Position numbers and translations under genes: made by a program. A stretch of 64,000 bases of DNA from Patescibacteria group bacterium (lineage in GTDB: Bacteria; Patescibacteriota; Patescibacteriia; JAXHNJ01). Below the pieces are notes generated by a model. That model worked only from the letters and a program-made list of their open reading frames with translations, was not told where the DNA came from and searched no databases. Shown in pieces: positions 2,776-62,501 of the stretch. Numbering within the stretch: the first letter of the stretch is position 1; every line of letters begins with the position of its first letter. The DNA is taken from positions 132,964 to 196,963 of the forward strand of contig JBAZMP010000002.1 of NCBI GenBank assembly GCA_041649715.1, read 5' to 3'.

Positions 2776-3810
2776 ATGGTGAAAGAAAAAATAAAAAAGG
2801 ACAAATCATCAGACCGGTCAAAGGCGGCCTTACTGGCCATTGAGCAGATTAAGGAGAGATTTGGCGCTGGCTCCATCATGAAGTTCGGCGAGGCAAGGAG
2901 CGCGGACGTGCCGGCCGTTTCCACCGGTTGTCTTTCTCTGGATATCGCCCTGGGCGTCGGGGGATTACCGAGGGGTCGCGTGGTGGAAATTTTCGGGCCA
3001 GAAGCTTCTGGAAAGACGACTTTAGCCCAGCACGTGGTGGCGGAAGTGCAGAAGATCGGCGGTTTGGCCGCCTTTATTGACGCGGAACACGCTCTGGATC
3101 CCGTTTATGCCCGTAAAATCGGAGTTAACGTGGACGAACTTTTGATTTCACAGCCTGATACCGGGGAACAAGCCCTGGAAATTTTAGAGACGCTGGTGCG
3201 CTCAAACGGCGTCGACATAGTCGTCATTGATTCGGTAGCGGCTTTAACCCCCAAAGCGGAGATAGAAGGGGAAATGGGTGATCAGCATATGGGCCTGCAA
3301 GCAAGGCTAATGAGCCAGGCTCTGCGTAAACTTACTTCCATTGTCTCAAAATCAAAAACCATCGTCGTTTTCATCAATCAGGTGAGAATGAAGATCGGCG
3401 TTTTTTTCGGTAACCCGGAAACGACCACCGGCGGTATGGCCTTGAAATTTTATTCTTCCGTAAGGATTGAAACCCGAAGGATCGGCCAGATCAAAAAAGG
3501 CGAACAGATCGTGGGCAACCGGACCCGGGCCAAGGTGGTGAAAAATAAGGTGGCGGCTCCCTTTAAATCCACCGAATTTGATATCATGTATAATGAAGGA
3601 ATTTCGGCGGCCGGCGATACGCTAGATACCGCCCTGAATTATGGCGTAATCGTTAAGACTGGAAACAGTTTTACTTACGGCCAGATAAAGTTAGGAGTCG
3701 GCCGTGATAACTCCCGCGATTATCTAAAAGAACATCCGGAGTTGATACAGGAGATTAAAACAAAGGTCTGGGAAGTGGTGAAAAGCCGGGAAAAAAGCGA
3801 CAATACATAA
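2776..3810 (+). CDS. recA: recombinase RecA
   Basis: Walker A 'GPEASGKTT', '[10 protein letters not shown]', L2-loop region '[20 protein letters not shown]'. ATG at 2776 follows 'GGAAAGGA'. The ORF-track start at 2752 is an upstream alternative codon. Confidence 0.97.
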
Positions 3811-5239: not shown

Positions 5240-5467
5240 TTATTTGGGCGTAAAAGGCAATAAGGCCATAAAGCGCGCCCTTTTGATCGCTTCGGCCAGC
5301 TTTCTTTGGTGTTTCATGCAGACGCCTGAACGCCGTCTCGGCGCGATTTTGACGTAAGAGGAAATGAAGCGTTTAATGGTGGCGATATCCTTATAGTCAA
5401 TATCGCTTTGGTTATTGACGCAAAAATAGCAGGGTTTAATTTTTTGTTCTGTCGGGGGTTTAAACAT
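5240..5467 (-). CDS. rpsR: 30S ribosomal protein S18
   Basis: 'CYFC...[14 protein letters not shown]...[33 protein letters not shown]'. ATG at 5467 lies 1 nt after the ssb stop. Confidence 0.93.
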
Positions 5468-5468
5468 A

Positions 5469-5894
5469 TTAAAAGGGGATATCTTCCACATTAATTTCTT
5501 CTTCGTTTCCTTCCGCCGCCGGCGTTTCGCCGGGAGTTTCGGCCGCCGGTTGAGGAGCCGTCTCGCCTTTTTTATCCAGCATGATCATGTTGGAAATCAC
5601 GATTTCGGTCCGGTATTTTTTCACCCCTGTCGGGTCGTCCCAGGAGCGGGTTTGCAAACGACCTTCGACATAAACCTTGCTGCCTTTTTTCAAATAAGCG
5701 GAGCAGGTTTCGGCCATTTTGCCCCAGGCGACTATATTGTGAAATTCCGGCTTGTTTTGTCTTTCGCCGGCCTGGTTTTTCCAGACGCGGTTGGTTGCCA
5801 CGCCGAAAGAGCAGACGCTTTGGCCGGAAGGAGTGCTCCGCATTTCCGGATCACGGGTGACATTGCCGATAAGCATGGCTTTATTTAGATTCAT
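5469..5894 (-). CDS. ssb: single-stranded DNA-binding protein
   Basis: OB fold '[36 protein letters not shown]...[12 protein letters not shown]'. Acidic C-terminal tip '...EDIPF'. Confidence 0.95.
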
Positions 5895-6573: not shown

Positions 6574-7836
6574 ATGAACCGTTATTTTTTCATCCTCGGC
6601 CGCAATCAAGCCTTGTCTCTGGCGGAAAGCGCCGCTTTTTTTAGCCGCGAACAGATGGTTTTTAATCCGCTTTATTTAGGCCGGGATTTTTTGGTCTGGG
6701 AGACGGAAAATAAAATTGATTTGAAGGCACTGAATAACCGGTTGGGAGGAGTGATTAAAGCCGGAGAAATATGGGCGGAAAGGCCGAAAAAGCCGGATCT
6801 GCTCGCCGACCTTTCCGAAGCCCTGGGCTTTTCCACTATCAGTAAATTTCTGCCTGTCGGCGCAGAAAAATTATTCTTAGGCTTTAGTCTGTATTTTGAC
6901 GAGGGCAAGAGCTTCATTTATCTGCAAAAAGGCTTGGAAAGGCATTTTTTAAGCCTAAAAAAAGAGATAAAGGAAACCGGCCAAAAATTGCGCTTGGTCA
7001 CTTCGCGCGGCCAGACTCTTTCTTCCGTGGTGGTGAAGAAAAATAAATTATTGACGGCCGGGGCGGAAATCGTCATTTTTGTCACACCCGAAAAAATGTT
7101 TATCGGGAAAACTTCAAGCGTCCAAGATTTTGAGGGTTATAGTTTCCGGGATTTCCAGCGGCCCGGACGGGATATGCGGATCGGTTTGATGCCGCCAAAA
7201 GTTGCCCAAATCATGGTAAATTTAGCGCAGGCCCGGGAAAGTGAGGTCATCTTGGATCCTTTTGCCGGCTGCGGCACGATTTTGCAGGAAGCGATACTCT
7301 TGGGCTATAAAAATTTGGTCGGTTCGGATAATAACCCGCGGGCCTTAAGCCAGACCCGGCAGAATTTAGAATGGTTATGCAGAAATTATAAGATTGACGA
7401 GAAAAAAATCAATGTAAAATTAATGCCGATCGATGTCCGGCAGATATACAAAGACTTAAGCCCCAATTCAGTGGACACAATTGTGACCGAACCATATCTG
7501 GGGCCGGCGCTTGATGATCGACCGGGGGAAGGCAAAATAAGAATGGTGGCGGCTAATCTGAGCCAGCTTTACTTGGATTTTTTCACCGCCATTAAAAGAG
7601 TTTTGAAACCCGGCGGCAAAATAGTCATGATCTGGCCGGTTTTCCGCACTCCGGCCGGCAAGCAGTTTTTGCCGATCTTGGAAAAAGTTCTGGCCAAGGG
7701 TTTTGAAAAAATCAACCTGATTCCCGAAGTTTTTAAGGCCAACGATCTGGAGGAACTAACAAGCCGGGGCTCGATTCTATATTCCCGGGAAGACCAGAAT
7801 GTTTTAAGGGAAATTTTCGTTTTTAAAAATGTTTAG
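6574..7836 (+). CDS. putative RNA (N2-G / N6-A type) SAM-dependent methyltransferase, Trm11/RlmL-like
   Basis: SAM motif I 'ILDPFAGCGTILQEA' and catalytic-type motif 'IVTEPYLG' (NPPY variant). N-terminal THUMP-like region. Confidence 0.7.
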   Translation: MNRYFFILGRNQALSLAESAAFFSREQMVFNPLYLGRDFLVWETENKIDLKALNNRLGGVIKAGEIWAERPKKPDLLADLSEALGFSTISKFLPVGAEKLFLGFSLYFDEGKSFIYLQKGLERHFLSLKKEIKETGQKLRLVTSRGQTLSSVVVKKNKLLTAGAEIVIFVTPEKMFIGKTSSVQDFEGYSFRDFQRPGRDMRIGLMPPKVAQIMVNLAQARESEVILDPFAGCGTILQEAILLGYKNLVGSDNNPRALSQTRQNLEWLCRNYKIDEKKINVKLMPIDVRQIYKDLSPNSVDTIVTEPYLGPALDDRPGEGKIRMVAANLSQLYLDFFTAIKRVLKPGGKIVMIWPVFRTPAGKQFLPILEKVLAKGFEKINLIPEVFKANDLEELTSRGSILYSREDQNVLREIFVFKNV

Positions 7837-8890
7837 AAAAATAAGGCATTTTTGGGTATTTAGCGCCATTTTAGTCGTGGTTGGCGTATTTTTTATTTTT
7901 TATTTTCAGGCGATCGGGGCCCTGAATACGGAGTCAAATTTTAGGGCTGGGGTCGTAAAAATCCCGGAAGAATCCGTTAAGGAAACGTCCGTAATTTTCG
8001 GGGGCGATATCATGCTCGCGCGGACCGTGGAACAAAAGATATTGGCGACCGGGGATTACGCCCTGCCTTTCCGGAAAATATATCAGGAATTTAAAAAAGC
8101 CGATCTGGCCCTTGCTAATTTGGAGTCGCCTTTTTCAGACGGCGGTTCGGCGACCCCGAACGGCAGCACGGTATTCCGGGCCCTGCCCAGAACAATAGAG
8201 AGTTTAAAATTAGCCGGCCTCGATGCGGTTACCTTAGCGAACAACCATTTTGGCGATCAGGGCAATAAAGGCAAACTTTACACCTTTAAGCATTTAACCG
8301 ATAACGGTATTGAATATTGCGGAGCGGGCAATGATTATGACGAAGCGCATACGCCGGTGATTAAAGAGGTTAATGAGATCAAGATCGGTTTTTTGGGCTA
8401 CGGATATCCGGAAACGATGTATGTGGCAACCGGCGATTCGCCGGGGCTCGCCAATATGGATATTGAACAGATGAAAAAAGATATTGAGCGATTAAGCGAT
8501 TCAGCGGACTTTATTGTGGTGACCATGCACGCTGGCGCGGAATACACGCATACACCCGGCAAATCGCAAATCGCATTTTCGCATGCGGCTATAGACGCCG
8601 GCGCCAATTTAGTGATTGGTCATCATCCCCACGTGGTTCAATCAACGGAAAAATATAAAGACGGCTATATTATTTACAGCTTGGGCAATCTGGTTTTTGA
8701 CCAGATGTGGTCAGAGGAAACCCAGCAGGGAGTCGTCGTTAAAGTGATTCTTTCTGATAATAAACTAAAATCAATAGAATTTAAACCCATCCATATTTAC
8801 GATTATAATCAGCCGGATTGGGTCGTCGGCAGCGAAGCGGAAAAGATTTTAGGGGATATGGGATTAAACTCGTTTACCCTGTCATTCTGA
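7829..8890 (+). CDS. CapA-family (PGA_cap) metallophosphatase-like protein
   Basis: Signal/TM anchor, then 'GGDIMLAR', 'ANLESPF', 'TLANNHFGDQG', 'MHAGAEY', 'GHHPHVVQ'. The last codons and stop lie inside a palindromic repeat. Confidence 0.8.
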   Translation: MFRKIRHFWVFSAILVVVGVFFIFYFQAIGALNTESNFRAGVVKIPEESVKETSVIFGGDIMLARTVEQKILATGDYALPFRKIYQEFKKADLALANLESPFSDGGSATPNGSTVFRALPRTIESLKLAGLDAVTLANNHFGDQGNKGKLYTFKHLTDNGIEYCGAGNDYDEAHTPVIKEVNEIKIGFLGYGYPETMYVATGDSPGLANMDIEQMKKDIERLSDSADFIVVTMHAGAEYTHTPGKSQIAFSHAAIDAGANLVIGHHPHVVQSTEKYKDGYIIYSLGNLVFDQMWSEETQQGVVVKVILSDNKLKSIEFKPIHIYDYNQPDWVVGSEAEKILGDMGLNSFTLSF

Positions 8891-8963
8891 GGCCAAAGGC
8901 CGAAGAATCTCGACATTAATAATTTCACATACGTGAGATTCTTTGCTTCGCTCAGAATGACAA
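8879..8963. repeat. palindromic intergenic element, CTGTCAYYCTGAGG...CTCAGAATGACA family
   Basis: 'ctgtcattctgagg..gaagaatctc ... gagattcttt..gctcagaatgacaat'. The arms are inverted repeats. Related to the GTCACCCTGAGG elements at 50.2-52.7 kb. Confidence 0.75.
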
Positions 8964-8967
8964 TAAA

Positions 8968-9016
8968 AAATCCTTCGGCGCCAATAAAAAAGCCCGGGAA
9001 ACTGGATTCTCGGGCG
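8968..9016. repeat. left copy of duplicated ychF-type terminator (direct repeat with 9873-9918)
   Basis: Identical 24-mer 'ttcggcgccaataaaaaagcccgg' at 8974-8997 and 9879-9902. Both copies continue into a GCCCG...CGGG hairpin. Confidence 0.85.
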
Positions 9017-9263
9017 TACTTCATTGAGGAAAGATCCCTTAATTTTTTCTTTTTGTTTTCCGACTGATCAATGTTTCGATCAGTCCCTTGAATAATAGAA
9101 GAAATTGATTAAATGCCATTTCCGCATTACACAGCAGGGAGTTGTTCTTGTCTCCTATGATTACCATTATTCCTTCTTTCTTCTGATTTTTGTTGAAGAA
9201 CAGACTTATTTAATTAATTCACATTTATCAAAATTTTTGTATTGTGTCAATAGCATATAAATA

Positions 9264-29146: not shown

Positions 29147-29231
29147 TGGTGCCCTGGGGGAGATTTGAACTCCCATCCCGTGAGGGACACGCTCCTGAAG
29201 CGTGCGCGTATGCCAGTTCCGCCACCAGGGC
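29147..29231 (-). tRNA. tRNA-Leu(CAG), CCA encoded
   Basis: Hand fold. Acceptor GCCCTGG/CCAGGGC. D arm GCGG-aactggcata-CGCG. Anticodon arm CACGC-ttCAGga-GCGTG. Long variable arm. T arm GGGAG-ttcaaat-CTCCC. Ends A-CCA. Confidence 0.93.
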
Positions 29232-46359: not shown

Positions 46360-46480
46360 GTGGGCAGAGCGGAGGGTTCGCATATCACCGCAAAGCGGGA
46401 CCCCCCCGCAATGCGGGGTGGGTGGTCTAGTGCGCTTGCTTGTCCCGCAAAGCGGGATGCCGCTCTGCGGCAGAGAGCCG
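46360..46480 (+). other. GC-rich structured segment built from tRNA-Ser 5'-half fragments plus small hairpins
   Basis: 'ggagggttcgcat' (11/13 match to tRNA positions 1-13) and an exact 21-mer 'gtggtctagtgcgcttgcttg' (46422-46442 = 46572-46592). These are separated by hairpins CCGCaaaGCGG, CCCCGCaatGCGGGG and TCCCGCaaaGCGGGA, all closed by GCAGAGCGG/CCGCTCTGC. Confidence 0.6.
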
Positions 46481-46557
46481 GAAAATAAGCATATGTATTC
46501 TGTCTGCATATAAAAGTTATAAAGGCGGTTTGCAATTTAATAAGTAGCGGAAAGAAC

Positions 46558-46644
46558 GGAGAGGTCGCATAGTGGTCTAGTGCGCTTGCTTGGAGAGCAA
46601 GTAGACCTTCACCGGTCTCGCGAGTTCAAATCTCGCCCTCTCCG
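46558..46644 (+). tRNA. tRNA-Ser(GGA), no encoded CCA
   Basis: Acceptor GGAGAGG/CCTCTCC. Anticodon arm CTTGC-ttGGAga-GCAAG. Long variable arm. T arm GCGAG-ttcaaat-CTCGC. Discriminator G. Confidence 0.92.
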
Positions 46645-46761
46645 TTCTTCCCGCTACAATCTTGCCCTCTCCGCCAATTATTTTAAATAAAAAAATCGCA
46701 AAAGTCTTGCATTTTTCTGGCGGGTGTTTGTTAAGATAAATTAAGTCGCAATTTGATTGGT

Positions 46762-49917: not shown

Positions 49918-50250
49918 ATGCCCAGAGAACACGAAGGGGAAAATCCCGAAGAATCGTTTAGCGAAACAGACAGAGAAAATGAAAAAGAAATATCAGTCAC
50001 ATTATCTCGGGAATCGACATTTGCCGACCTGTACAGATTGATGGAAAATCATGAAAATAGTGAAGAATTGAAGGATTTGTTTGATCAGGAATTAATCGAT
50101 AATTTCGGCCAAGAAATAGTTGATGAAGTTATGGCTTTTGAAGAATCTGCTAACCCTGAAGCGGCCAAAACAAAAGTAATTGATTTCTTCGTGGAGCGCG
50201 GTTATGAAAAAGGGGATATTATTGCTTATTTGCCCGTTGAATTTAAGTAA
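49918..50250 (+). CDS. hypothetical acidic protein
   Basis: Highly acidic 110-aa ORF. No family assigned. Confidence 0.45.
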   Translation: MPREHEGENPEESFSETDRENEKEISVTLSRESTFADLYRLMENHENSEELKDLFDQELIDNFGQEIVDEVMAFEESANPEAAKTKVIDFFVERGYEKGDIIAYLPVEFK

Positions 50251-50257
50251 TACAAAA

Positions 50258-50345
50258 CGTCACCTCGAGGTATCCTTCGACGCGGCTCAGGGCTCAGCCT
50301 GACAATATGGACTAAGCCTTTTTTTGCCCGGGGTTTGGGGGGGAA
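50258..50345. repeat. degenerate member of the GTCACC..GAGG / CTCAG..TGACA palindromic repeat family
   Basis: 'cgtcacctcgaggtatccttcgacg..ctcagggctcagcctgacaat..actaagcc..gcccggggtttggggggg'. Confidence 0.6.
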
Positions 50346-50354
50346 CAAAAAGCT

Positions 50355-50819
50355 ATGCGCGACCCGAAGCTTGAAACATCAGGAAAAATAATCGGCTTTT
50401 ATGAAAGGGAGTTTTATTGTTTTTCCAATTTTTCAAGTTTTAAAGTGGAGTGGCAGGGTAAAATCTGGATGACCTCGGAACATGCCTATCAGGCGGCCAG
50501 ATTCTTGAAAACCGCGCCGGCCATCGCGGAAGAGATTTATAAGGCCAGGTCCGCCCACGAAGCGAAAAAGATCATGGAAAGAAACCGGGCCAAAGAGGAG
50601 CCGAACTGGGAGACCAAGAAGGTTGGCGTGATGGAAGAAATATGCTCTAATAAACTCAAGCAGAACCCTTATATCCAAAAGAAGCTGCGGGAAACCGGAA
50701 CAAAAGATATTGTGGAGGATTCGCCGGTGGATGGTTTCTGGGGCTGGGGTCCTGATCGCAAAGGCAGAAATGAACTTGGGAAGATTTGGATGAGATTAAG
50801 AGAGAAACTGTCACCCTGA
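50355..50819 (+). CDS. NADAR (YbiA/DUF1768) family protein
   Basis: 'FYEREFYCFSNFS...WMTSEHAYQAARF', 'DGFWGWG'. The last four codons and the stop lie in the repeat core. Confidence 0.8.
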   Translation: MRDPKLETSGKIIGFYEREFYCFSNFSSFKVEWQGKIWMTSEHAYQAARFLKTAPAIAEEIYKARSAHEAKKIMERNRAKEEPNWETKKVGVMEEICSNKLKQNPYIQKKLRETGTKDIVEDSPVDGFWGWGPDRKGRNELGKIWMRLREKLSP

Positions 50820-50942
50820 GGTGCGGAGCCTCGAAGGGTGACGCCTGAAAAAAGGCACATTGTCTATGCTTCGAGACGCCCGCCGGGCTCCTCAGCATGA
50901 CAATGTGGGCTAGCCTTTTGAGCCCGTGGTTTGGGGGGCGAC
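50808..50942. repeat. palindromic repeat element with 34-nt core TGTCACCCTGAGGTGCGGAGCCTCGAAGGGTGAC (core 50809-50842)
   Basis: Core identical at 50809, 51905 and 52560. The second half ends '...ctcctcagcatgacaat'. Confidence 0.85.
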
Positions 50943-51027
50943 GGAGATATCAAGATATTGTCCGCCCAAGGCGGATCCGCCTCTGGCGGAAGATGTCGAG
51001 AACTAGTTAAGTAAAAGGCTTACATTT

Positions 51028-51896: not shown

Positions 51897-51903
51897 ATAG
51901 TAA

Positions 51904-52027
51904 CTGTCACCCTGAGGTGCGGAGCCTCGAAGGGTGACCCTTTAATAAGCTTCCGCTGTCTATACTTCGACACCTTCGCCCTTCGATGCCACTCAGGGCT
52001 CGGGCTCAGTATGACAGCGGACTAAGG
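51904..52027. repeat. palindromic repeat element (core 51905-51938)
   Basis: Identical 34-nt core. Second half 'gctgtctatacttcgac...ctcagtatgacagcgg'. Confidence 0.85.
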
Positions 52028-52038
52028 AGACAAACGAC

Positions 52039-52554
52039 ATGGCCAAGCTCTGGCGCTGCGAAATCTGCGGAGATTGCTATATCGGCGAAAAACCGCCGAC
52101 CAACTGCCCTTTTTGCGGAGCGCATCAAAAATATTTTAAGATCGCCAAAATAGCCAAGGCTAACTTTGACGTGAAGCTGAATGAAAAAGACCTGGCCAAC
52201 GCCGAACACGCCTTAGCCGTGGAAGTCTCCAATTTCACTTTCTATTTCTGCGCGGCCAAGAAAACGGATGATGAAGAAGGTAAGCTGTTATTCAAAGCTT
52301 TGGGCAAGGTGGAGCTGGAGCATGCGACAATCTGGAAGAAAATCTTAAAAAATGCCGCTATTCCGGCGGGCAATGACCAGTGCCATACGGCCAATAAGGA
52401 AAATCTTTCCGACTCGCACGCCCGAGAAACCAAGGCCATTGAATTTTATGCCAAAGCGGCCGGGGAATCGACAGACTCAAGGATCAAGCAGATTTTTGTC
52501 GCCTTAGTGGAAGTGGAGACGGATCATTTACACTTATCCGAGGAACGTTTATAA
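52039..52554 (+). CDS. reverse rubrerythrin-type protein (N-terminal rubredoxin-like Cys4 + ferritin-like domain)
   Basis: 'CEICGDCY...CPFCG' at the N-terminus. 'VELEHA' and 'VEVETDH' diiron-type helices. Confidence 0.8.
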   Translation: MAKLWRCEICGDCYIGEKPPTNCPFCGAHQKYFKIAKIAKANFDVKLNEKDLANAEHALAVEVSNFTFYFCAAKKTDDEEGKLLFKALGKVELEHATIWKKILKNAAIPAGNDQCHTANKENLSDSHARETKAIEFYAKAAGESTDSRIKQIFVALVEVETDHLHLSEERL

Positions 52555-52558
52555 TATA

Positions 52559-52665
52559 TTGTCACCCTGAGGTGCGGAGCCTCGAAGGGTGACGCTTTGA
52601 TAAATACTACTGCCATACTTCGAGGCACTTCGCTTTCGCTCGTGCACCTCAGTATGACAGTATGG
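52559..52665. repeat. palindromic repeat element (core 52560-52593)
   Basis: Identical 34-nt core. Second half 'ctgccatacttcgag...cctcagtatgacagtatgg'. Confidence 0.85.
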
Positions 52666-55722: not shown

Positions 55723-56910
55723 ATGTCCAGGCAGGCAAAAAAGAAGAATAAATCAAAAAAATCTTTTAATAAAAAAAAGGCCGCTAAACCAAGAAAGACG
55801 CCGAAAGAGAAGTATCTAAAGGCGGATTTTCCCCGGGAAAAAATCGAAGATTTGATCAATAAGGGCCGTTCGCGCGGTTTTATCACCGAGACGGAGGTTC
55901 TTTATGTTTTGCCGGATTTAGAGGATTATTTGTTGGAATACGAGCAATTGATGGATAAATTTGAAAATCTCGGCATTGTCATCGTGGAATCGCCGACCTC
56001 TATTTTAGCGACAAAAAAAGAAAAGGAAGAATACCAGGAAAAATTCGGGCACGGGAAGGACGCCCGCCGTTTTGACCTGGGCGACATTTCCGATGATTCC
56101 ATCCAGATGTATTTAAGGGAAATCGGCAAAGTCCATCTTTTAAAGACGGAAGAAGAGGTCAGTCTGGCCAAAAGGAAGGAAAAGGGGGACATGGAAGCGC
56201 AAAAAAAACTCGTGGAAGCGAATTTGCGTTTAGTGGTGTCCATCGCCAAAAAATTTACCGGCCGTTCATTGTCCCTGTTGGATTTGATTCAGGAGGGCAA
56301 TATCGGTTTATTCCGGGCCGTGGAAAAATTTGATTATCGCAAGGGCTATAAATTTTCCACTTATGCCACCTGGTGGATCAGGCAGGCGATCACCCGGGCG
56401 CTGGCCGATCAATCCCGCACCATCCGTATTCCCGTTCATATGGTGGAGACGATAAATCGTTTCCAGCAGGTGGAAAGACAATTGATTCAGGATCTGGGCC
56501 GCGAGCCCCTGCCGGAAGAGATTGCCGCCGAAATGGGCGAACCGGTGGAAAAAATCCGCCACATCATCAATATTTCCCAGGATACTGTCTCTTTGGAAAC
56601 CTCGGTGGGCGACGAAGAAGAAGATTCCACTTTGGGTGACTTTATCGAAGACGTAAAAACCATCACGCCGGACCGGGTGGCCGCTTTACAACTCCTGAAG
56701 GATCACGTAAAAGATATTATCAAGGAATTGACCCCCCGCGAGCAGAAGATATTGGAAATGCGTTTTGGATTGCTTGACGGCGTGGCCCATACCTTGGAGG
56801 AAGTAGGCAAGGAATTCGGGGTGACTCGCGAAAGGATCCGCCAGATCGAGGCCAAGGCTTTGGAGAGAATCCAGGAACATCACGGGATGAGAAAGCTGAA
56901 GGATTACTAA
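55723..56910 (+). CDS. rpoD: RNA polymerase sigma factor RpoD
   Basis: Region 2 '[39 protein letters not shown]'. Region 4 '[24 protein letters not shown]'. Confidence 0.96.
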
Positions 56911-56927
56911 TAATTAGTACCCAAAGC

Positions 56928-56999
56928 TCCGCGATAGCTCAATGGTAGAGCAACCGGCTGTTAACCGGTAGGTTGTCGGTCCGAATCCGACTCGCGGAG
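56928..56999 (+). tRNA. tRNA-Asn(GTT)-like gene with non-canonical T-loop (TCCGAAT)
   Basis: TCCGCGA ta GCTC aatggta GAGC a ACCGG ctGTTaa CCGGT aggtt GTCGG tccgaat CCGAC TCGCGGA g. Position 55 is C instead of the near-universal U. Flanked by TACCCAAAGC / GCTTTGGGTA. Confidence 0.7.
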
Positions 57000-57020
57000 C
57001 TTTGGGTATTTTATTTATTT

Positions 57021-57222
57021 ATGGTATCCCTGGTTGCCGCTGCAACCGGGACCCCGGCGCGAAGCGCCAGGGGGAGCAGCCGGCTGTTAACCGGTAGAGT
57101 CTGTCCTGAGTGGCAACGAAGGATTGTCGGTCCTGCGCCCGAGGCGCACCCGCCTTGGGCGGGGAATCCGACTCGCCCCGTACCAAAGCGCTTGCGCTTT
57201 GGTACGGGGCTCGCGGAGCTGG
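57021..57222 (+). pseudogene. second tRNA-Asn-like copy broken into four blocks by GC-rich hairpin insertions
   Basis: Blocks 57074-57097 (23/24 match to copy 1), 57124-57133, 57164-57176 and 57210-57220. They are separated by inserts of 26, 30 and 33 nt. The 5' part is replaced by hairpins. Confidence 0.55.
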
Positions 57223-57254
57223 CGAGATTATTTTTTTGTCGTCTAGCCAGAATT

Positions 57255-57290
57255 AAAAAGCCCCTTTTAGCAAAAGGGGCCTAGTTTTTG
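57255..57290. terminator. bidirectional terminator
   Basis: AAAAAGCCCCTTTT-agc-AAAAGGGGCCTAGTTTTT. Confidence 0.7.
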
Positions 57291-57295
57291 GGGGA

Positions 57296-57622
57296 TTATG
57301 CTCCCAATATCTGATGACGAGGCAAGAGCTTTTTCAGGAGAGCAGGCGTCGCATTTTCCAGCTGGAAAGCCTGGCGGAAAGGTTTCGCAATCTTGGGGTG
57401 AAAAAGGCTCAAGACTTCTTCCAGACTGCCTTCTCTTCGGGTTCCCCCGTGCTCGGGATCTTGAGCGATGGCCACGAAAGATTTTTCTTGCCGGGTGATG
57501 GAGATGGTAAGGCAAGGTTCCAGATTCCAGAGGGTATATTCCTCGATTTCGACCACTTGGCCGTTTATTACCTGGATGGTATCCGGTGGCAGTTTTGCCC
57601 TATCGGCTAATCCTGGTTCCAT
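57296..57622 (-). CDS. hypothetical protein
   Basis: Strong RBS 'GAGAGGAGGAAAT' before the ATG on the minus strand. The overlapping plus-strand ORFs lack one. Confidence 0.6.
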   Translation of the reverse strand: MEPGLADRAKLPPDTIQVINGQVVEIEEYTLWNLEPCLTISITRQEKSFVAIAQDPEHGGTRREGSLEEVLSLFHPKIAKPFRQAFQLENATPALLKKLLPRHQILGA

Positions 57623-57706
57623 ATTTCCTCCTCTCGAGTTTGGGCGGAAAGAACGAATTTATAAGGTATCTAGATGTTATTAAAATAAGATACATTTGTC
57701 AATATC

Positions 57707-57736
57707 TTGACAAATGCGGCTCATTTGCTCTAAGAT
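57707..57736 (+). promoter_or_regulatory. promoter TTGACA-N18-TAAGAT
   Basis: TTGACA 57707-57712, TAAGAT 57731-57736. Confidence 0.55.
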
Positions 57737-57746
57737 GTAATTACTT

Positions 57747-57803
57747 ATGAAACTTGCGAAGCAAAATCTGAATAACAATAATAACCGTCTTTTGGCCGGG
57801 TGA
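57747..57803 (+). CDS. candidate 18-codon leader ORF MKLAKQNLNNNNNRLLAG (six Asn codons)
   Basis: ATG about 4-10 nt after the predicted TSS, with no SD. Codons AAT CTG AAT AAC AAT AAT AAC. The 3' end GGCCGGG is complementary to the terminator 5' arm. Confidence 0.35.
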   Translation: MKLAKQNLNNNNNRLLAG

Positions 57804-57832
57804 GTTTCATTTAATTTGTAATTATGAGGAAA

Positions 57833-57857
57833 CCCGGCCAAATGAGCCGGTTTTTTT
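57833..57857 (+). terminator. intrinsic terminator (attenuator candidate)
   Basis: CCGGC-caaatga-GCCGG followed by TTTTTTT. CCCGGCC (57833-57839) can alternatively pair with GGCCGGG (57794-57800). Confidence 0.75.
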
Positions 57858-57867
57858 GTTTATAGCC

Positions 57868-58148
57868 GGGCGCCGCGCTCAGGGGTAGTTGAGCTGGTAC
57901 CCCGCATAACTCACTGTGTTCGTATGCGGGGCAGGCAACGCCGGTAATATATTTTAATGATTATTCCAGCTCTCCTGTAGTTTAATTGGTAAAACGCTGC
58001 ACTGTTAATGCAGAGATTGGAGGTTCGAGTCCTCCTGGGAGAGCTGGGATAATCATTGTAGCACTGCTTGTCCCGTAGGAACAGAAAGCGACTTACGGGA
58101 TTAATGCGGAGACCGCTGGTTCGAATCCAGCCCCCTGAGCGCGGCGCC
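57868..58148 (+). pseudogene. degenerate tRNA(Asn-like) gene interrupted by hairpins and by a complete nested tRNA-Asn cassette
   Basis: 18-bp closing helix GGGCGCCGCGCTCAGGGG / CCCCTGAGCGCGGCGCC. 5' block 'tcaggggtagttgagctggta'. 3' blocks 'gcactg' + 'ttaatgcggagacc GCTGG ttcgaat CCAGC cccctga g'. Hairpins at 57900-57931 and 58071-58100. Confidence 0.55.
57971..58043 (+). tRNA. tRNA-Asn(GTT), canonical
   Basis: TCTCCTG ta GTTT aattggta AAAC g CTGCA ctGTTaa TGCAG agatt GGAGG ttcgagt CCTCC TGGGAGA g. Closely resembles E. coli tRNA-Asn. Flanked by GATTATTCCAGC / GCTGGGATAATC. Confidence 0.93.
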
Positions 58149-58294
58149 AGTGTTTCGTCTGTCCGTCGAAACCCTGAAAGGGTGAAGGCGGAAGCCCACC
58201 TGGAGGAGCCAAATATTATTTAAATATTTGGTAGAAAAGAAAAACGCCCCACGAAGCGACAATTGTTTTGTGCTTTGTCGGGCGTGTACTGAGA

Positions 58295-59000: not shown

Positions 59001-59462
59001 ATGGACCCAAACGCCATTAATTTTTTAAGAGATTCGCTGGCTCACCACCATAATTTGAGGAATTCTTTGGACGGCAAAGCCTCTTTTTTATTGGCCATTG
59101 CCGGGGTGGTTTTCGGCTTAAGCGTTATCAGACTGGAAAAAGTCCAGTTTGTGGTGATTGCCATTACCGCTTTTCTGACCATTCTTTTGACGGTCTTCGC
59201 CGTCTTTCTGCCTTACCGCGGGAAAATGAAAGAGAAAATCGGCCTGATGTGCTGGTGGGGTTTCGCCGGAAAAAGTTATGAAAGCTACCAGGAAGAAGTT
59301 AATCGAGTTATTAAAACTGACGAAGCGATTGCCGACGAATATAAGAAGGAGATCTGGAATCTGGCCAATTATTCTCTAAGACCGAAGTCAGTCTTGCTGA
59401 AATGGGCGAGTTTCGTTCTGACGGTCGGGCTTTTGGCCGGGTTTGTTCTGTTTTTCGTTTAA
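59001..59462 (+). CDS. 3-TM protein, DUF5706 / Pycsar-effector (PycTM)-like
   Basis: 'HHHNLRNSLDGKASFLLAIAGVVFGL' followed by a second TM and a C-terminal TM. The pattern was recalled from memory and was not searched. Confidence 0.45.
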   Translation: MDPNAINFLRDSLAHHHNLRNSLDGKASFLLAIAGVVFGLSVIRLEKVQFVVIAITAFLTILLTVFAVFLPYRGKMKEKIGLMCWWGFAGKSYESYQEEVNRVIKTDEAIADEYKKEIWNLANYSLRPKSVLLKWASFVLTVGLLAGFVLFFV

Positions 59463-59612
59463 ATAATAGAATCAAAATAGCCGAATTTTAGGGCTATTTT
59501 TTTGTTTGACTAAAAATCATTCTTATGGTAAGAAACATTAACGCCCTTTGACAGTTTTATAATTTTTCAAGTCACAAAACACAGAAATCTTCAAGAAAAC
59601 AAGGAGGTGGAG

Positions 59613-62501
59613 ATGGAAGAGAATCATGGTTTTAACCTGGAAACGCCCCTGGCTGTGACCCCTGATGATATTAAGAGCATTTCTGATCCATCTCCGCGTT
59701 TTCGGAGCTGGGCCTGGCAAATGTATCTTCGCCGCGAGCTTAACCTGATCGTGGAGGCGGTCATCTGGTTGGGCAAAGCGGCCAATATCATCGAAGCCCT
59801 TGCTTATCTTAACCGTCTGACGGTTGAGTATCCGGAAACCGAGCTGAAGGTCGTGGTCAAGGATCTGGAGAATATCCGAGATCCCGGCCCGAAAATGGTG
59901 AAGCTAAGAACCCTCGTGAGAGGGATCAGAGCCAAAGCGAAGGATCCGCAGCTCACGCGCGGCGCCTTGACGCATCAGGCGGTCAATGACCTTTTTAGCG
60001 GTCGGCTGATGTCTTCCGGCGGGAGAAGAACCGACAAGACTTCTTCTCAGCTTGAATTGTTCAAGCTTGAGAAAAGCCGTCAGATTCTTCTTTTTGATGA
60101 ATTCGCCGAGGAGTCAGTTCAAAGCGAAAAATCGGAAAAAATGCGTCTGAGCCGCACCCGAGTGCTTAATCGGATTCAGCATCACTGGAAAGTGATAAGG
60201 TCGGCCATCGAAAAGCAGGGTTGGCCGGCCTGGCGACGGAAAAGGCGAAACGTCAATTGTCTGGAAAAATGGCTGGCGATTCTTTTCGGCGAACACGCCG
60301 TTAAGCTTGGCGCCGAAGTAGGCTTCGGCGAACACTTTAAGGTGTTGACCGAGCTGACTTGGGCCGCCGCCGCGAGCTATTGGCTGAGAGAAAGACAAAG
60401 GCCGATGATTTTGTTCCGGGAGATAAACGTGATTGCCTCGCGTCATCACCTTGGCGGCGGACGCATTGACGCTCTTGAGGTGCGTCGCATCGGCGGAAAG
60501 TTGCCGAATCGGAGGCAAGACCGGATACTTACCGAAATGAGCCGTAACCGCTATAAATCCGTCGGCCATCTGATCATGGAGCTTGGCAAACGCTTTGACC
60601 AGCCGGTTGAAGTGACGGTCATCGACTGGAAATCTTTGGTCGGCGACGTGGTCACCGGGGATAAAGAATGGTCTTCGACGGATTTAAAAAAAGAACCCCA
60701 ATTCGCCGATCAGGAACAGATGAAGAGGTATCTGACGCTGATCCCTCTGGATTGCTACTTGGTCGGTCAAAAAGGTGAGCTTTGGCGACCCGAAGACGTG
60801 ACTCTGCGCGGGGAACTCTGGTATTTGATGCCTGACCAGGCGCCCATTGTTCATGAAGTGAGCATGGCCGTCGAGCAAATGCAGGATTATTTTTTGAATT
60901 ACGTCGTGCTTGAGTGGCCCGAAGCTTCCCGGCGGGCTTTGGCCAGGGAAGTCAATAACATTTTCCTTCGCCATCTGGTCGAGATCCATGAAAAAGGGGA
61001 AAGTCGCCCGAAGAAAGGAGCTTTCGGCAATAATCATAACGGGAATCAGGCTCTGCCACTTTTCCCGGAAGAAAAAGTAAAAGTCGTGTCCGTCCGGGAG
61101 ATAATCCGAGCGCATCGGGATAAATATCCGCTCTTTGCCGACCGCCGGCAGATTCTCCAGATTGTGGGCAAGCGCCGCAAGACAGGGACCCATAAATTGG
61201 AGATGAATTACAGCAAGCTGCTAGAGGCCATGGCAAAAGGGGAGGTAAAAACCTACAGTTGGTCGGATCCCGCCCAGCCTTTTACCGTGCAGTGCCTGAT
61301 GGACGATCACCGGGATTCTGACCCTTCCATGCGTATTTATCCCGACTGGTTACGTTTCTGGTGTTTCGGTTGCCGCACGGGCGGAAGCATTGCCATTGAA
61401 TCCGTGCCGGGCGACCTCGCCAATCGACTGGCGCCAAAATGGCAGGAAATCAGCCGCCAGCCCACTAAGCTTGACTGGTCGGTCTTGCCGGTTATTCCCG
61501 AAGAACATGACCGGATTATGCGCCGCGCCCAGCAGTTGCTGGCCTTATCTTTTTGGCCTAGTCCGGCGGTGGAATATCTGCGTCAAGAAAGGAGAGTAGA
61601 TCCTTCCCTGGCTTATGAATACGGCGCGGGTTACGGCAATAACAGCTTGATCATCGGGTTGATGAGTGAAGGTTATTGCTTAGATGATCTGATCCGCTAC
61701 GGATTCGTAAAAATCACGCCTAATTTCTGGCGGGCCAGCAGTCTGATCGGATTGTTGCAGGAAGAGTTCGGTCTTTCCGCTCAGGAAATCACGCGCGAGT
61801 ACTTATCTAAGAAGACTCAGCGGACGGAAATTGGTTATCCCTATTCAGTTCTGGCTGGCCGCGTGACTTTCCCTTTGAAGCTTGAAGGCAAACACACCAA
61901 TTTCTATGGCCGGATAATTCCGCCTACAGAGGAGATGCTGACGCACATCAAGCTTTCGATGCTGGGCGAAAAAGTCGTCCAGGGCGGCTTCAATACCGAC
62001 ATTCTTTTGTCAGACGCTAAGGAGGTGAAATTTGCCGAAGCGGTCATTGATACTCTGACCTTAGCCCAGATGGGTTATCGGAACGTGATCGCTTTGGTCG
62101 GCACCGAGAATGTCGAGATTCTCAAAGCGGCGATCCGGGCCCGCAAGAATATTGGCTTGTCCCTTGATTACGACAAGTTCGGCCGGAAGCTGACCCTGAG
62201 GACGATCAGGCGTTATTTGGCCACGGTGAATTTGGGCGGCGAAAAAGTCTGGCGGGAAATTGATCAGTATGTCCGCGAGATTGAAGAAGCGATCAAGAGG
62301 GAGGAAACGGGAGAAAAAGAAGCTCTTCATTTCGGGGAATATTTCCGCCGGCTGGGTTACCTGGGGATTGAGGATTTCACCGCTAGATTCGTGGCTGACC
62401 ATCGGGAATGTCTTGGTCGTGAATTTGATTTCAACACCTGGTGGCAGAGATTCGGTTGTCAAAACGCACCTTTATCTTGGGAGGAAGACAATAACGCGTA
62501 G
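59613..62501 (+). CDS. fusion protein: RecB-family PD-(D/E)XK nuclease-like N-terminal half + CHC2 zinc finger + Toprim primase-like C-terminal half
   Basis: RBS 'AAGGAGGTGGAG'. 'GGGRIDALEV', 'VTVIDWKSL', 'EQMKRYLTL' (D / DxK / QxxxY). 'CLMDDHRDSDPSMRIYPDWLRFWCFGCRTGGSIAIE' (CHC2). 'FAEAVIDTLTLAQMGYRNVIALVGT' and 'LSLDYDKFG' (Toprim E, DxD). Confidence 0.75.
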   Translation: MEENHGFNLETPLAVTPDDIKSISDPSPRFRSWAWQMYLRRELNLIVEAVIWLGKAANIIEALAYLNRLTVEYPETELKVVVKDLENIRDPGPKMVKLRTLVRGIRAKAKDPQLTRGALTHQAVNDLFSGRLMSSGGRRTDKTSSQLELFKLEKSRQILLFDEFAEESVQSEKSEKMRLSRTRVLNRIQHHWKVIRSAIEKQGWPAWRRKRRNVNCLEKWLAILFGEHAVKLGAEVGFGEHFKVLTELTWAAAASYWLRERQRPMILFREINVIASRHHLGGGRIDALEVRRIGGKLPNRRQDRILTEMSRNRYKSVGHLIMELGKRFDQPVEVTVIDWKSLVGDVVTGDKEWSSTDLKKEPQFADQEQMKRYLTLIPLDCYLVGQKGELWRPEDVTLRGELWYLMPDQAPIVHEVSMAVEQMQDYFLNYVVLEWPEASRRALAREVNNIFLRHLVEIHEKGESRPKKGAFGNNHNGNQALPLFPEEKVKVVSVREIIRAHRDKYPLFADRRQILQIVGKRRKTGTHKLEMNYSKLLEAMAKGEVKTYSWSDPAQPFTVQCLMDDHRDSDPSMRIYPDWLRFWCFGCRTGGSIAIESVPGDLANRLAPKWQEISRQPTKLDWSVLPVIPEEHDRIMRRAQQLLALSFWPSPAVEYLRQERRVDPSLAYEYGAGYGNNSLIIGLMSEGYCLDDLIRYGFVKITPNFWRASSLIGLLQEEFGLSAQEITREYLSKKTQRTEIGYPYSVLAGRVTFPLKLEGKHTNFYGRIIPPTEEMLTHIKLSMLGEKVVQGGFNTDILLSDAKEVKFAEAVIDTLTLAQMGYRNVIALVGTENVEILKAAIRARKNIGLSLDYDKFGRKLTLRTIRRYLATVNLGGEKVWREIDQYVREIEEAIKREETGEKEALHFGEYFRRLGYLGIEDFTARFVADHRECLGREFDFNTWWQRFGCQNAPLSWEEDNNA

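Follow-up and report, generated by a model that had tools for sequence, protein, structure and literature searches.

A probable tRNA-Asn gene remnant interrupted by short GC-rich palindromes downstream of rpoD in a Patescibacteria genome

The window analysed here, a 64,000-nucleotide stretch of a Patescibacteria group bacterium genome (contig JBAZMP010000002.1, assembly GCA_041649715.1), has the local gene order dnaG, rpoD, tRNA-Asn. ARAGORN and Rfam call two intact tRNA-Asn(GUU) genes in it, at 56928-57000 (tRNA-Asn1) and 57971-58044 (tRNA-Asn2), and neither calls a tRNA at 57021-57222. This segment, which forms a partial, colinear copy of tRNA-Asn1 interrupted by hairpin-forming inserts, is the subject of our work. 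We consider it probably a truncated, redundant tRNA gene colonised by short palindromic repeats. RpoD, encoded at 55723-56910, is 60-69% identical to its best GTDB representatives (Falkowbacteria, Moraniibacteria and similar) and 83-94% identical to that of several uncultured relatives. The GTDB hits were too distant for comparison, and close relatives were instead obtained by protein search and contig look-ups. The region 3' of rpoD was compared in nine distinct relatives identified by RpoD, several of them on more than one contig. Two recur below: L084 (GCA_043812155.1; RpoD 91% identical) and L082/L083 (RpoD 93% identical). The features of the locus are as follows.

56917-56927 (+): leader strand of a stalk, gtacccaaagc, which pairs with the trailer and lengthens the tRNA-Asn1 acceptor stem.
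56928-57000 (+): intact tRNA-Asn(GUU), here called type A, with no encoded CCA (ARAGORN; Rfam tRNA model, 71.9 bits).
57001-57020 (+): trailer strand of the stalk (with g57000, gctttgggta), then a U-rich spacer.
57021-57026 (+): block 0, ATGGTA, D-loop sequence covering tRNA positions 15-20; the remnant has its 5' boundary here, as it does in L084.
57027-57073 (+): insert 1, 47 nt, with hairpins H1 (57028-57050) and H2 (57052-57073); it separates ATGGTA from GAGCA.
57074-57097 (+): block 1, GAGCAGCCGGCTGTTAACCGGTAG, the D-stem 3' strand, an anticodon arm that is intact (loop CUGUUAA) and the first part of the variable loop.
57098-57123 (+): insert 2, 26 nt, hairpin CCUGAG-UGGCAA-CGAAGG with tandem G.A pairs; dispersed family.
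57124-57133 (+): block 2, TTGTCGGTCC, variable loop, T-stem 5' strand and T-loop TCC.
57134-57163 (+): insert 3, 30 nt, between T-loop positions 56 and 57; dispersed family.
57164-57176 (+): block 3, GAATCCGACTCGC, T-loop GAAT, T-stem 3' strand and start of the acceptor 3' strand.
57177-57209 (+): insert 4, 33 nt, a palindrome of 15-16 bp with duplicated CTCGC on its flanks; not in L084.
57210-57235 (+): block 4, CTCGCGGAGC (57210-57219, acceptor 3' end and discriminator), plus a GCTGG trailer.
57258-57282 (no strand assigned): bidirectional terminator-like hairpin, which closes both the unit of tRNA-Asn1 and its copy and a convergent 108-aa open reading frame (ORF; 57296-57622, minus strand).

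Once the four inserts (47, 26, 30 and 33 nt, 5' to 3') are removed, 57021-57219 is colinear with positions 15-73 of tRNA-Asn1, from which it differs by one substitution and one 1-nt indel. The first-pass annotation, made from the sequence alone, had described four almost unmutated blocks separated by inserts of 26, 30 and 33 nt, and both the arrangement and the near identity are confirmed. It had not confidently identified a 5' acceptor strand or D-arm. Nowhere does the copy contain tRNA nt 1-14, which make up the acceptor 5' strand, positions 8-9 and the D-stem 5' strand, but the D-loop ATGGTA and the 47-nt insert had been overlooked. Insert 3 does consist, as it proposed, of two tandem hairpins, both perfect and each of 6 bp with a 3-nt loop. 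The acceptor palindrome also agrees with its account, including the duplicated CTCGC and the likeness to the neighbouring stalk: the arms CGTACC-AAAGC / GCTTTGG-TACG match the tRNA-Asn1 leader and trailer strands AGTACCCAAAGC / GCTTTGGGTAT. Folded together with GCGAG, block 4 and GCTGG give a terminator-like hairpin that precedes a T-run. The fold z-score is −8.8. Stems were assigned from the local hairpins of a longer fold, since the global minimum-free-energy fold of the excised copy gave spurious long-range pairs.

The intact gene upstream has features of its own. A −10-like TAATAAT, read from the sequence, overlaps the rpoD stop codon. The stretch 57001-57020, together with a 17-bp helix, looks like an intrinsic terminator, and its spacer GTATTTTATTTAT is kept in L084. 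The stalk itself has a wholly different sequence in L084 and L082, with complementarity retained. In the T-loop of tRNA-Asn1 (56981-56987), UCCGAAU, a C stands in place of the normally invariant U55, the site of pseudouridine 55. This C55 variant is also found in L082 and L084, in genes and fragments alike, whereas the T-loop is UUCGAAU in L088, L099 and L100 and UUCGAGU in L097.

Each insert was compared by BLAST with the window and with the relatives' loci, and two belong to dispersed families. Insert 2 has a 17/18 copy at 51980-51997 (minus strand), and its motif CCTGAG-N4-14-CGAAGG occurs at six distinct sites in the window, where 0.09 would be expected. The sites other than insert 2 all lie in spacers between 50.2 and 52.6 kb, and the CCUGAG/CGAAGG stems are identical in every copy, with variation confined to the loops. 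Tandem 6-3-6 double hairpins (15+15 nt) like insert 3 occur at three window sites, against 0.13 expected; the two relatives of insert 3 are found at 50961-50990 and, within a fragment of a tRNA-Ser gene, at 46443-46472. Insert 3 is 89% identical over 27 nt to 50962-50988 (minus strand), a copy that is syntenic in both L082 and L084. BLAST found no second copy of H1, H2 or the acceptor hairpin (insert 4) within the window. Thus, the search for further copies that the first-pass annotation had proposed was positive for inserts 2 and 3 and negative, over these 64 kb, for the others. A repeat resembling a target duplication, CTCGC, flanks insert 4 only.

These elements resemble repetitive extragenic palindromic (REP) sequences, other short palindromic repeats and MITEs, or miniature inverted-repeat transposable elements (PMC3733652, PMC2229807, PMC10969869). 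In all of them, imperfect GC-rich palindromes 15-35 nt long recur at several dispersed sites, for the most part directly 3' of stop codons, and the stems covary between copies. They differ in that the repeats here also sit inside RNA-gene remnants, often exactly at former loops, and in that the CTCGC duplication accompanies a single insert. We noticed no GTAG/CGTC head of the REP kind, although no systematic look was taken, and there is no RAYT or transposase in 57.2-64 kb. Rfam was run at gathering and permissive thresholds on the locus and at gathering thresholds on the nine relatives' loci; apart from one group I intron in L088, it matched tRNA only. For the hairpin families there was no Rfam match at the permissive threshold, over the locus and the 50.2-52.7 kb spacers. 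A kink-turn assignment for the CCUGAG..CGAAGG hairpin was rejected: the tandem G.A pairs are present, but the 3-nt bulge is absent.

A family of intergenic repeats is also present; its members, of ~80-110 nt, at 50803-50910, 51899-52010, 52554-52660 and 50250-50300 are made of hairpins with the motif CCUGAGG..CCUCGAAGG (tandem G.A pairs). They lie directly 3' of stop codons in a rubrerythrin/desulfoferrodoxin cluster and are not in Rfam. The tRNA-Ser(GGA) 5' fragment at 46370-46478 (+), which begins with the acceptor 5' strand and reaches the anticodon loop, carries a 38-nt D-loop hairpin (46385-46422) and a 30-nt double hairpin inside the anticodon (46443-46472), with an intact tRNA-Ser downstream at 46557-46645. 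Since the same double hairpin occurs in this fragment, hairpin decoration is not specific to tRNA-Asn.

A tRNA-Asn lies directly 3' of rpoD in all nine relatives, with debris around it in almost all. The same decorated copy is present in L084, where it includes H1, H2, the variable-loop insert and the T-loop insert; L084 lacks the acceptor hairpin and carries instead a 65-nt AT-rich insert between GAATCC and CGAC. A third, 3' fragment in L084 contains three different GC-rich hairpins. In L082/L083, a 5' fragment with a 38-nt D-loop hairpin is followed by an intact gene and then by a T-arm/acceptor fragment whose 40-nt T-loop insert is unrelated, so that the intact gene is nested in a broken one. 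L090 has a broken type A gene that keeps its own leader/trailer pairing and encloses an intact tRNA-Asn of other sequence. A T-loop insert homologous to that of the window is found at the same position in L090 and L098, and further 5' fragments with homologous D-loop hairpins occur in L098 and L099. L100 has an undecorated, clean 3' fragment, GGTAGAGC..GACTCGCG, ~110 nt 3' of its intact gene, and in L085 a single gene lies between two intact tRNA-Asn copies. L088 has two full tandem genes, the second with a CCAGC/GCTGG stalk and a group I intron (5382-5605; RF00028, 61.6 bits) at position 35/36, in tandem with the intron-less copy. The end of the L099 contig holds the start of the same intron-bearing gene.

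The GCTGG trailer of the window copy is also found on the second tRNA-Asn gene of L088 and on the third fragment of L084, and L084 and L088 have a downstream flank in common. For these reasons we infer that the window copy descends from an ancestral tandem pair, of which it would be the second member, now decayed. tRNA-Asn is the commonest group I intron host in Patescibacteria, with insertion at position 35/36 (Nakagawa et al. 2026, PMC13011429). The phylum and the host gene are the same here, and the intron-bearing gene of L088 is orthologous to the remnant; the window inserts, in contrast, are hairpins of 26-47 nt with no ribozyme core, and none is at 35/36.

Beyond the cluster, the downstream genes differ in nearly every relative. 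In the window, the stretch 59001-62501 encodes PycTM, a Pycsar effector-like protein, and a Toprim protein of 964 aa; L090 has an S24 peptidase, a helix-turn-helix (HTH) protein, an EcoRI methylase and GmrSD at 6628-9245, and L098 an rve_3 fragment at 3190-3606. The tRNA-Asn cluster borders a variable island with defence or mobile-type genes. The fragments, nested genes and group I intron of the relatives, together with their differing downstream genes, show a rapid turnover of tRNA-Asn loci in the clade. The contigs of L086, L087, L001 and L006 end within or right after the tRNA-Asn/fragment region, which fits repeats breaking short-read assemblies. Metagenome scans for the pattern of anticodon block, gap, T-stem block, gap and GAATCC, and for type A 3' ends with an interrupted T-loop, yielded no further homologues: the one true match was L092, which is L083, and the other four were chance hits in GC-rich coding DNA. 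Scans of viral contigs for the two tRNA-Asn types found only unrelated phage tRNA arrays, and a phage origin is unsupported.

The comparison with L084 bears on the age of the inserts. The first-pass annotation had suggested recent invasion by mini-hairpin elements; the hairpin elements are borne out by the dispersal of inserts 2 and 3, but the recency is not. Inserts of 47, 26 and 30 nt are shared with L084, from which the window differs at 38% of rpoD fourfold sites, and the homologous T-loop insert is shared with L090 and L098 at ~60% fourfold divergence. The insertions are therefore old, and the unmutated look of the tRNA-like blocks would reflect gene conversion with the neighbouring gene rather than youth. 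Position 55 is the same in gene and fragments, C in the window, L082 and L084 and U in L090 and L097, which suggests that the blocks evolve in concert with the functional gene.

On this evidence, our preferred explanation, to which we give a probability of roughly 0.6, is that 57021-57235 is a 5'-truncated, redundant tRNA-Asn(GUU) paralogue that has been colonised by REP-like palindromes and no longer makes a tRNA. The remnant would retain positions 15-73 and its own GCTGG trailer from a second, tandem tRNA-Asn gene, interrupted by four short GC-rich palindromes, at least two of which belong to hairpin families dispersed between the genes of this genome and its relatives. Gene conversion may keep the tRNA-like blocks nearly identical to the adjacent working gene, and stem complementarity may be kept by whatever maintains the repeat family, either a hairpin function in RNA or single-stranded DNA or the mechanism of propagation. 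No splicing would occur. Because the stalk and U-run resemble a terminator and further terminator-like hairpins follow, the copy would be transcribed only by read-through from tRNA-Asn1, and such transcripts would stop at the hairpins of 57210-57235 and 57258-57282. The remnant would be one case of rapid, lineage-wide tRNA-Asn turnover beside a variable gene island. The truncation may have arisen by tandem duplication and deletion or as an integration scar. Hairpin insertions into genes, RNA genes included, are also known from the intervening sequences of bacterial 23S rRNA and from Rickettsia palindromic elements, where they are likewise tolerated at loops of structured RNAs; the host genes there stay functional, whereas the host here is a truncated, redundant copy.

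Several observations weigh against this explanation. The decorated copy is identical to its L084 counterpart at 136 of 150 positions (91%), exceeded only by the tRNA itself, whereas in the syntenic 6 kb other spacers are 39-66% and coding sequences 77-85% identical; the copy is thus far too well conserved for free decay. Its 13 differences from L084 are all compensatory, pair-preserving or unpaired, and no stem is broken. H1 has one compensatory pair (U-A to C-G) and H2 is identical; the anticodon stem has one G.U to A-U change; and the rest are in hairpin loops or linker, with insert 3 differing in loop bases only. The anticodon loop CUGUUAA is intact in both copies. By a simple positional calculation, the chance that all uncompensated differences would be unpaired is ~1e-5 to 2e-4. 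Likewise, the 5' fragments of L090 and L099 are ~86% identical at an rpoD fourfold difference of 57%. Conservation at the level of a repeat family is shown for only two of the five hairpins, within the 64 kb available, and no transposase, RAYT or integrase was found in a scan of 57.2-64 kb. The hairpins are thus under constraint or subject to family-level conservation. For inserts 2 and 3, stem conservation is explained by repeat families that are conserved as such; for H1 and H2, the constraint may be either family-level or locus-level.

An alternative that concerns the origin of the remnant only, and is compatible with our preferred explanation, is that it is an attachment-site scar. An element carrying a partial tRNA-Asn would have integrated by crossover near the D-loop (GGTAGAG) and displaced the 3' part of the host gene, later being mostly deleted, and the hairpins would have arrived afterwards. 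tRNA gene fragments beside tRNA genes are a well-known by-product of integrating elements (van der Gulik et al. 2023, PMC9897764), and the present copy resembles them as a partial, colinear copy of a neighbouring gene with an incomplete cloverleaf at the edge of a variable region. It departs from them in the four structured palindromes that interrupt it and in conservation above that of neighbouring protein genes; moreover, relatives nest intact tRNA genes in broken ones, unlike simple integration. The 5' fragments of L082, L099 and L100 end at ..CAATGGTA(GA(GC)), and the 3' fragments of the window, L084 and L100 begin at (AT)GGTAGAGC. Because breakpoints cluster around the D-loop GGTAGAG, site-specific integration may have contributed to the fragments, and the downstream content that varies in almost every relative, with defence-type genes in the window, L090 and L098, points the same way, as do the two intact copies flanking one gene in L085. 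There is, however, no integrase near the copy in the 57.2-64 kb scanned, and only 20 nt separate it from the intact gene. To our knowledge, D-loop crossovers are not among the classical tRNA-integrase sublocations (anticodon loop, T-loop and 3' end), which we count against a scar. The plain tandem pair of L088, whose second member has the GCTGG trailer, favours tandem duplication followed by 5' truncation. We regard a scar as possible but rather unlikely.

The conservation listed above invites a second alternative, that the copy is a functional, tRNA-derived structured RNA co-transcribed with tRNA-Asn1, presenting an anticodon arm on a hairpin scaffold. It could possibly act as a decoy or regulator of an anticodon-recognising enzyme or toxin, or as a module for the processing, stability or termination of the tRNA transcript. 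Identity to L084 above that of any neighbouring protein gene, changes confined to loops and compensatory pairs, the anticodon loop unbroken in both genomes and the strongly negative fold z-score would all be expected of such an RNA. In the window, L084, L082 and L090, and in a more decayed state in L097, the first tRNA-Asn is followed at the same place by a 3' remnant with a T-loop insert, a retention notable in such small genomes. Against this, L082 is equally close by RpoD and does not have the copy, only a T-arm/acceptor fragment with its unrelated insert, and insert 4 is missing from L084, whose 65-nt AT-rich insert lies elsewhere. Two of the inserts are generic repeats also present in ordinary spacers, the terminator-like stalk and U-run stand between tRNA-Asn1 and the copy, no Rfam family was matched, and the pattern of changes comes from two sequences only. 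We therefore judge a functional RNA unlikely.

The second tRNA-Asn locus of the window bears on a broader possibility. Its main feature is the following.

57869-58148 (+): broken tRNA-Asn gene, here called type C, which encloses the intact tRNA-Asn2.

In this gene, the acceptor and the leader/trailer together form a 17-bp helix (57869-57885 with 58132-58148); the D-arm is kept, and the T-arm (58115-58131) is perfect. Its D-loop is broken by a 32-nt hairpin plus 'cagg' (57900-57935), and its anticodon region contains a cassette with tRNA-Asn2 (57971-58044) on a 15-bp stalk and a further hairpin (58072-58099). The orthologue is a plain, intact tRNA-Asn in L082, L090 and L097, while L098 keeps the nested architecture at ~80% identity and 61% fourfold divergence. 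Between the window and L098, the outer acceptor stem and T-stem covary, and three compensatory double changes are present in the inner tRNA's stalk. We also considered 57866-58150 as a tmRNA, a Y-RNA-like or another tRNA-like RNA; this was rejected for want of ARAGORN or Rfam support and in view of the plain tRNA-Asn orthologue in relatives.

Stalks of this kind are general among the tRNA genes of the window that lack an encoded CCA: both tRNA-Asn genes and tRNA-Ser sit on leader/trailer helices (56917-57010, 57956-58057 and 46544-46658). These extend the acceptor stem by ~10-15 bp in the window genes and by 7-15 bp in the relatives that have one, and the stalk sequences of close relatives are unrelated yet complementary. 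The tRNA-Leu gene (29147-29231, minus strand), in contrast, encodes CCA and has no stalk. Pairing between leader and 3' end that extends the acceptor stem has been reported to hinder bacterial RNase P (PMC9433436).

One may speculate that the decorated remnant is one visible outcome of an undescribed mode of tRNA-gene renewal in Patescibacteria. Self-contained units would move, namely stalked, CCA-less tRNA cassettes flanked by covarying inverted repeats, and would land in tRNA genes of the same isoacceptor; hairpins would prefer loops; and the resulting pieces would be retained for a function at the RNA level, such as that of a processing platform or of a decoy in a conflict over tRNA-Asn. 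We consider such a process distinctly improbable at present.

Two further readings barely survive. The first-pass annotation had speculated that the copy is a multi-intron tRNA of the kind known in archaea, in which the hairpins would be removed by bulge-helix-bulge (BHB) splicing, or by RNase III-type excision and ligation, to give a working tRNA-Asn. Archaeal multi-intron, split and permuted tRNA genes do carry several short BHB introns at non-canonical tRNA positions, and the copy is similar in having several short, non-canonical insertions in tRNA-like sequence. The inserts are clean, three of the four are at or in loops (D-loop, variable loop and T-loop), and the exon-like blocks are nearly free of mutation. 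However, tRNA nt 1-14 do not exist, and removing the inserts in silico did not restore a complete cloverleaf: ARAGORN finds no tRNA in either the raw or the insert-free copy, and reports tRNA-Asn only when 14 nt are borrowed from tRNA-Asn1. We enumerated 3-4-3 BHB motifs at every junction, allowing 3-nt shifts and G.U pairs, and found no full motif at or within 3 nt of any junction. The proposed test of BHB geometry thus failed throughout; the best score, 9 of 10 pairs, requires junctions shifted by 3 nt, a shift that would not restore the tRNA, and since the perfect stems of the inserts begin 0-1 nt from the junctions, there is no room for 3-nt bulges. Insert positions are not the same in the window and L084, and every decorated fragment, in the window or in relatives, adjoins a clean, intact gene of the same isoacceptor. 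Here one such gene, without an intron, is 20 nt upstream, and a second is at 57971-58044. Group I introns at 35/36 are the sole type documented for Patescibacteria tRNA-Asn (PMC13011429), and no group I signal is present: the Intron_gpI model gives no match at E<=10 in 56800-58200, and the anticodon loop of the copy is uninterrupted. An incomplete exon set in a bacterium with an intact paralogue alongside is thus unlike the archaeal case, and the multi-intron reading is close to refuted. Just as improbable is an assembly artefact in which strain variants of the locus were concatenated, for although the broken contigs of L086, L087, L001 and L006 show that the region is hard to assemble, the same architecture occurs with independent substitutions in L084 (a separate NCBI metagenome-assembled genome from a different project), L082 (ENA) and L083 (JGI) agree, and the inserts consist of perfect palindromes from known local families rather than of variant tRNA sequence.

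The second locus is preceded by a leader region at 57707-57862 (+), with equivalents in L082 (5533-5685), L090 (5691-5842), L097 (3985-4128) and L098 (2760-2908). A sigma-70-like promoter (TTGACA-18-TAAGAT) is conserved here, and ~10 nt beyond it comes a short Asn-rich ORF. The leader peptide is MKLAKQNLNNNNNRLLAG in the window and MKIRQQNLDSNNNRLSAG, MKFTRQNNNNNNNNRYMAG, MRFTRENNNDNNNRFMTG and MKFIRRNNNNNNNRFMVG in the four relatives, with 3-8 Asn codons in the five genomes. Its stop codon lies inside the 5' arm of a long, antiterminator helix, TTGGCCGGGT / ACCCGGCCAA, and this helix and a terminator hairpin (CCGGC..GCCGG plus a T-run) are mutually exclusive. In all five genomes, tRNA-Asn begins ~10-25 nt from the leader T-run. 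RNAalifold recovers the antiterminator helix, with no covariation, and Rfam returns sub-threshold Leu_leader and Trp_leader matches only. This putative leader looks like a ribosome-mediated attenuator of the trp/his type, acting on a tRNA-Asn gene. Our literature searches found no report of ribosome-mediated attenuation of a tRNA gene by an Asn leader, and no description of hairpin-decorated tRNA fragments, nested tRNA genes or Asn-leader control of a tRNA gene.

A lone tRNA gene remnant is ordinary in itself. What the present one suggests is that small palindromic repeats can colonise tRNA remnants at former loops and keep their structure over ~40% synonymous divergence. This calls for caution in the annotation of tRNAs in the candidate phyla radiation (CPR) and raises the question of what maintains such hairpins. 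Together with its counterparts in relatives, the locus documents that tRNA-Asn loci are remodelled unusually fast in a clade whose genomes are tiny, in a phylum where tRNA-Asn is already the main intron host. Finally, if the leader works as it appears to, a tRNA gene would be under ribosome-mediated attenuation that senses its own charged product.

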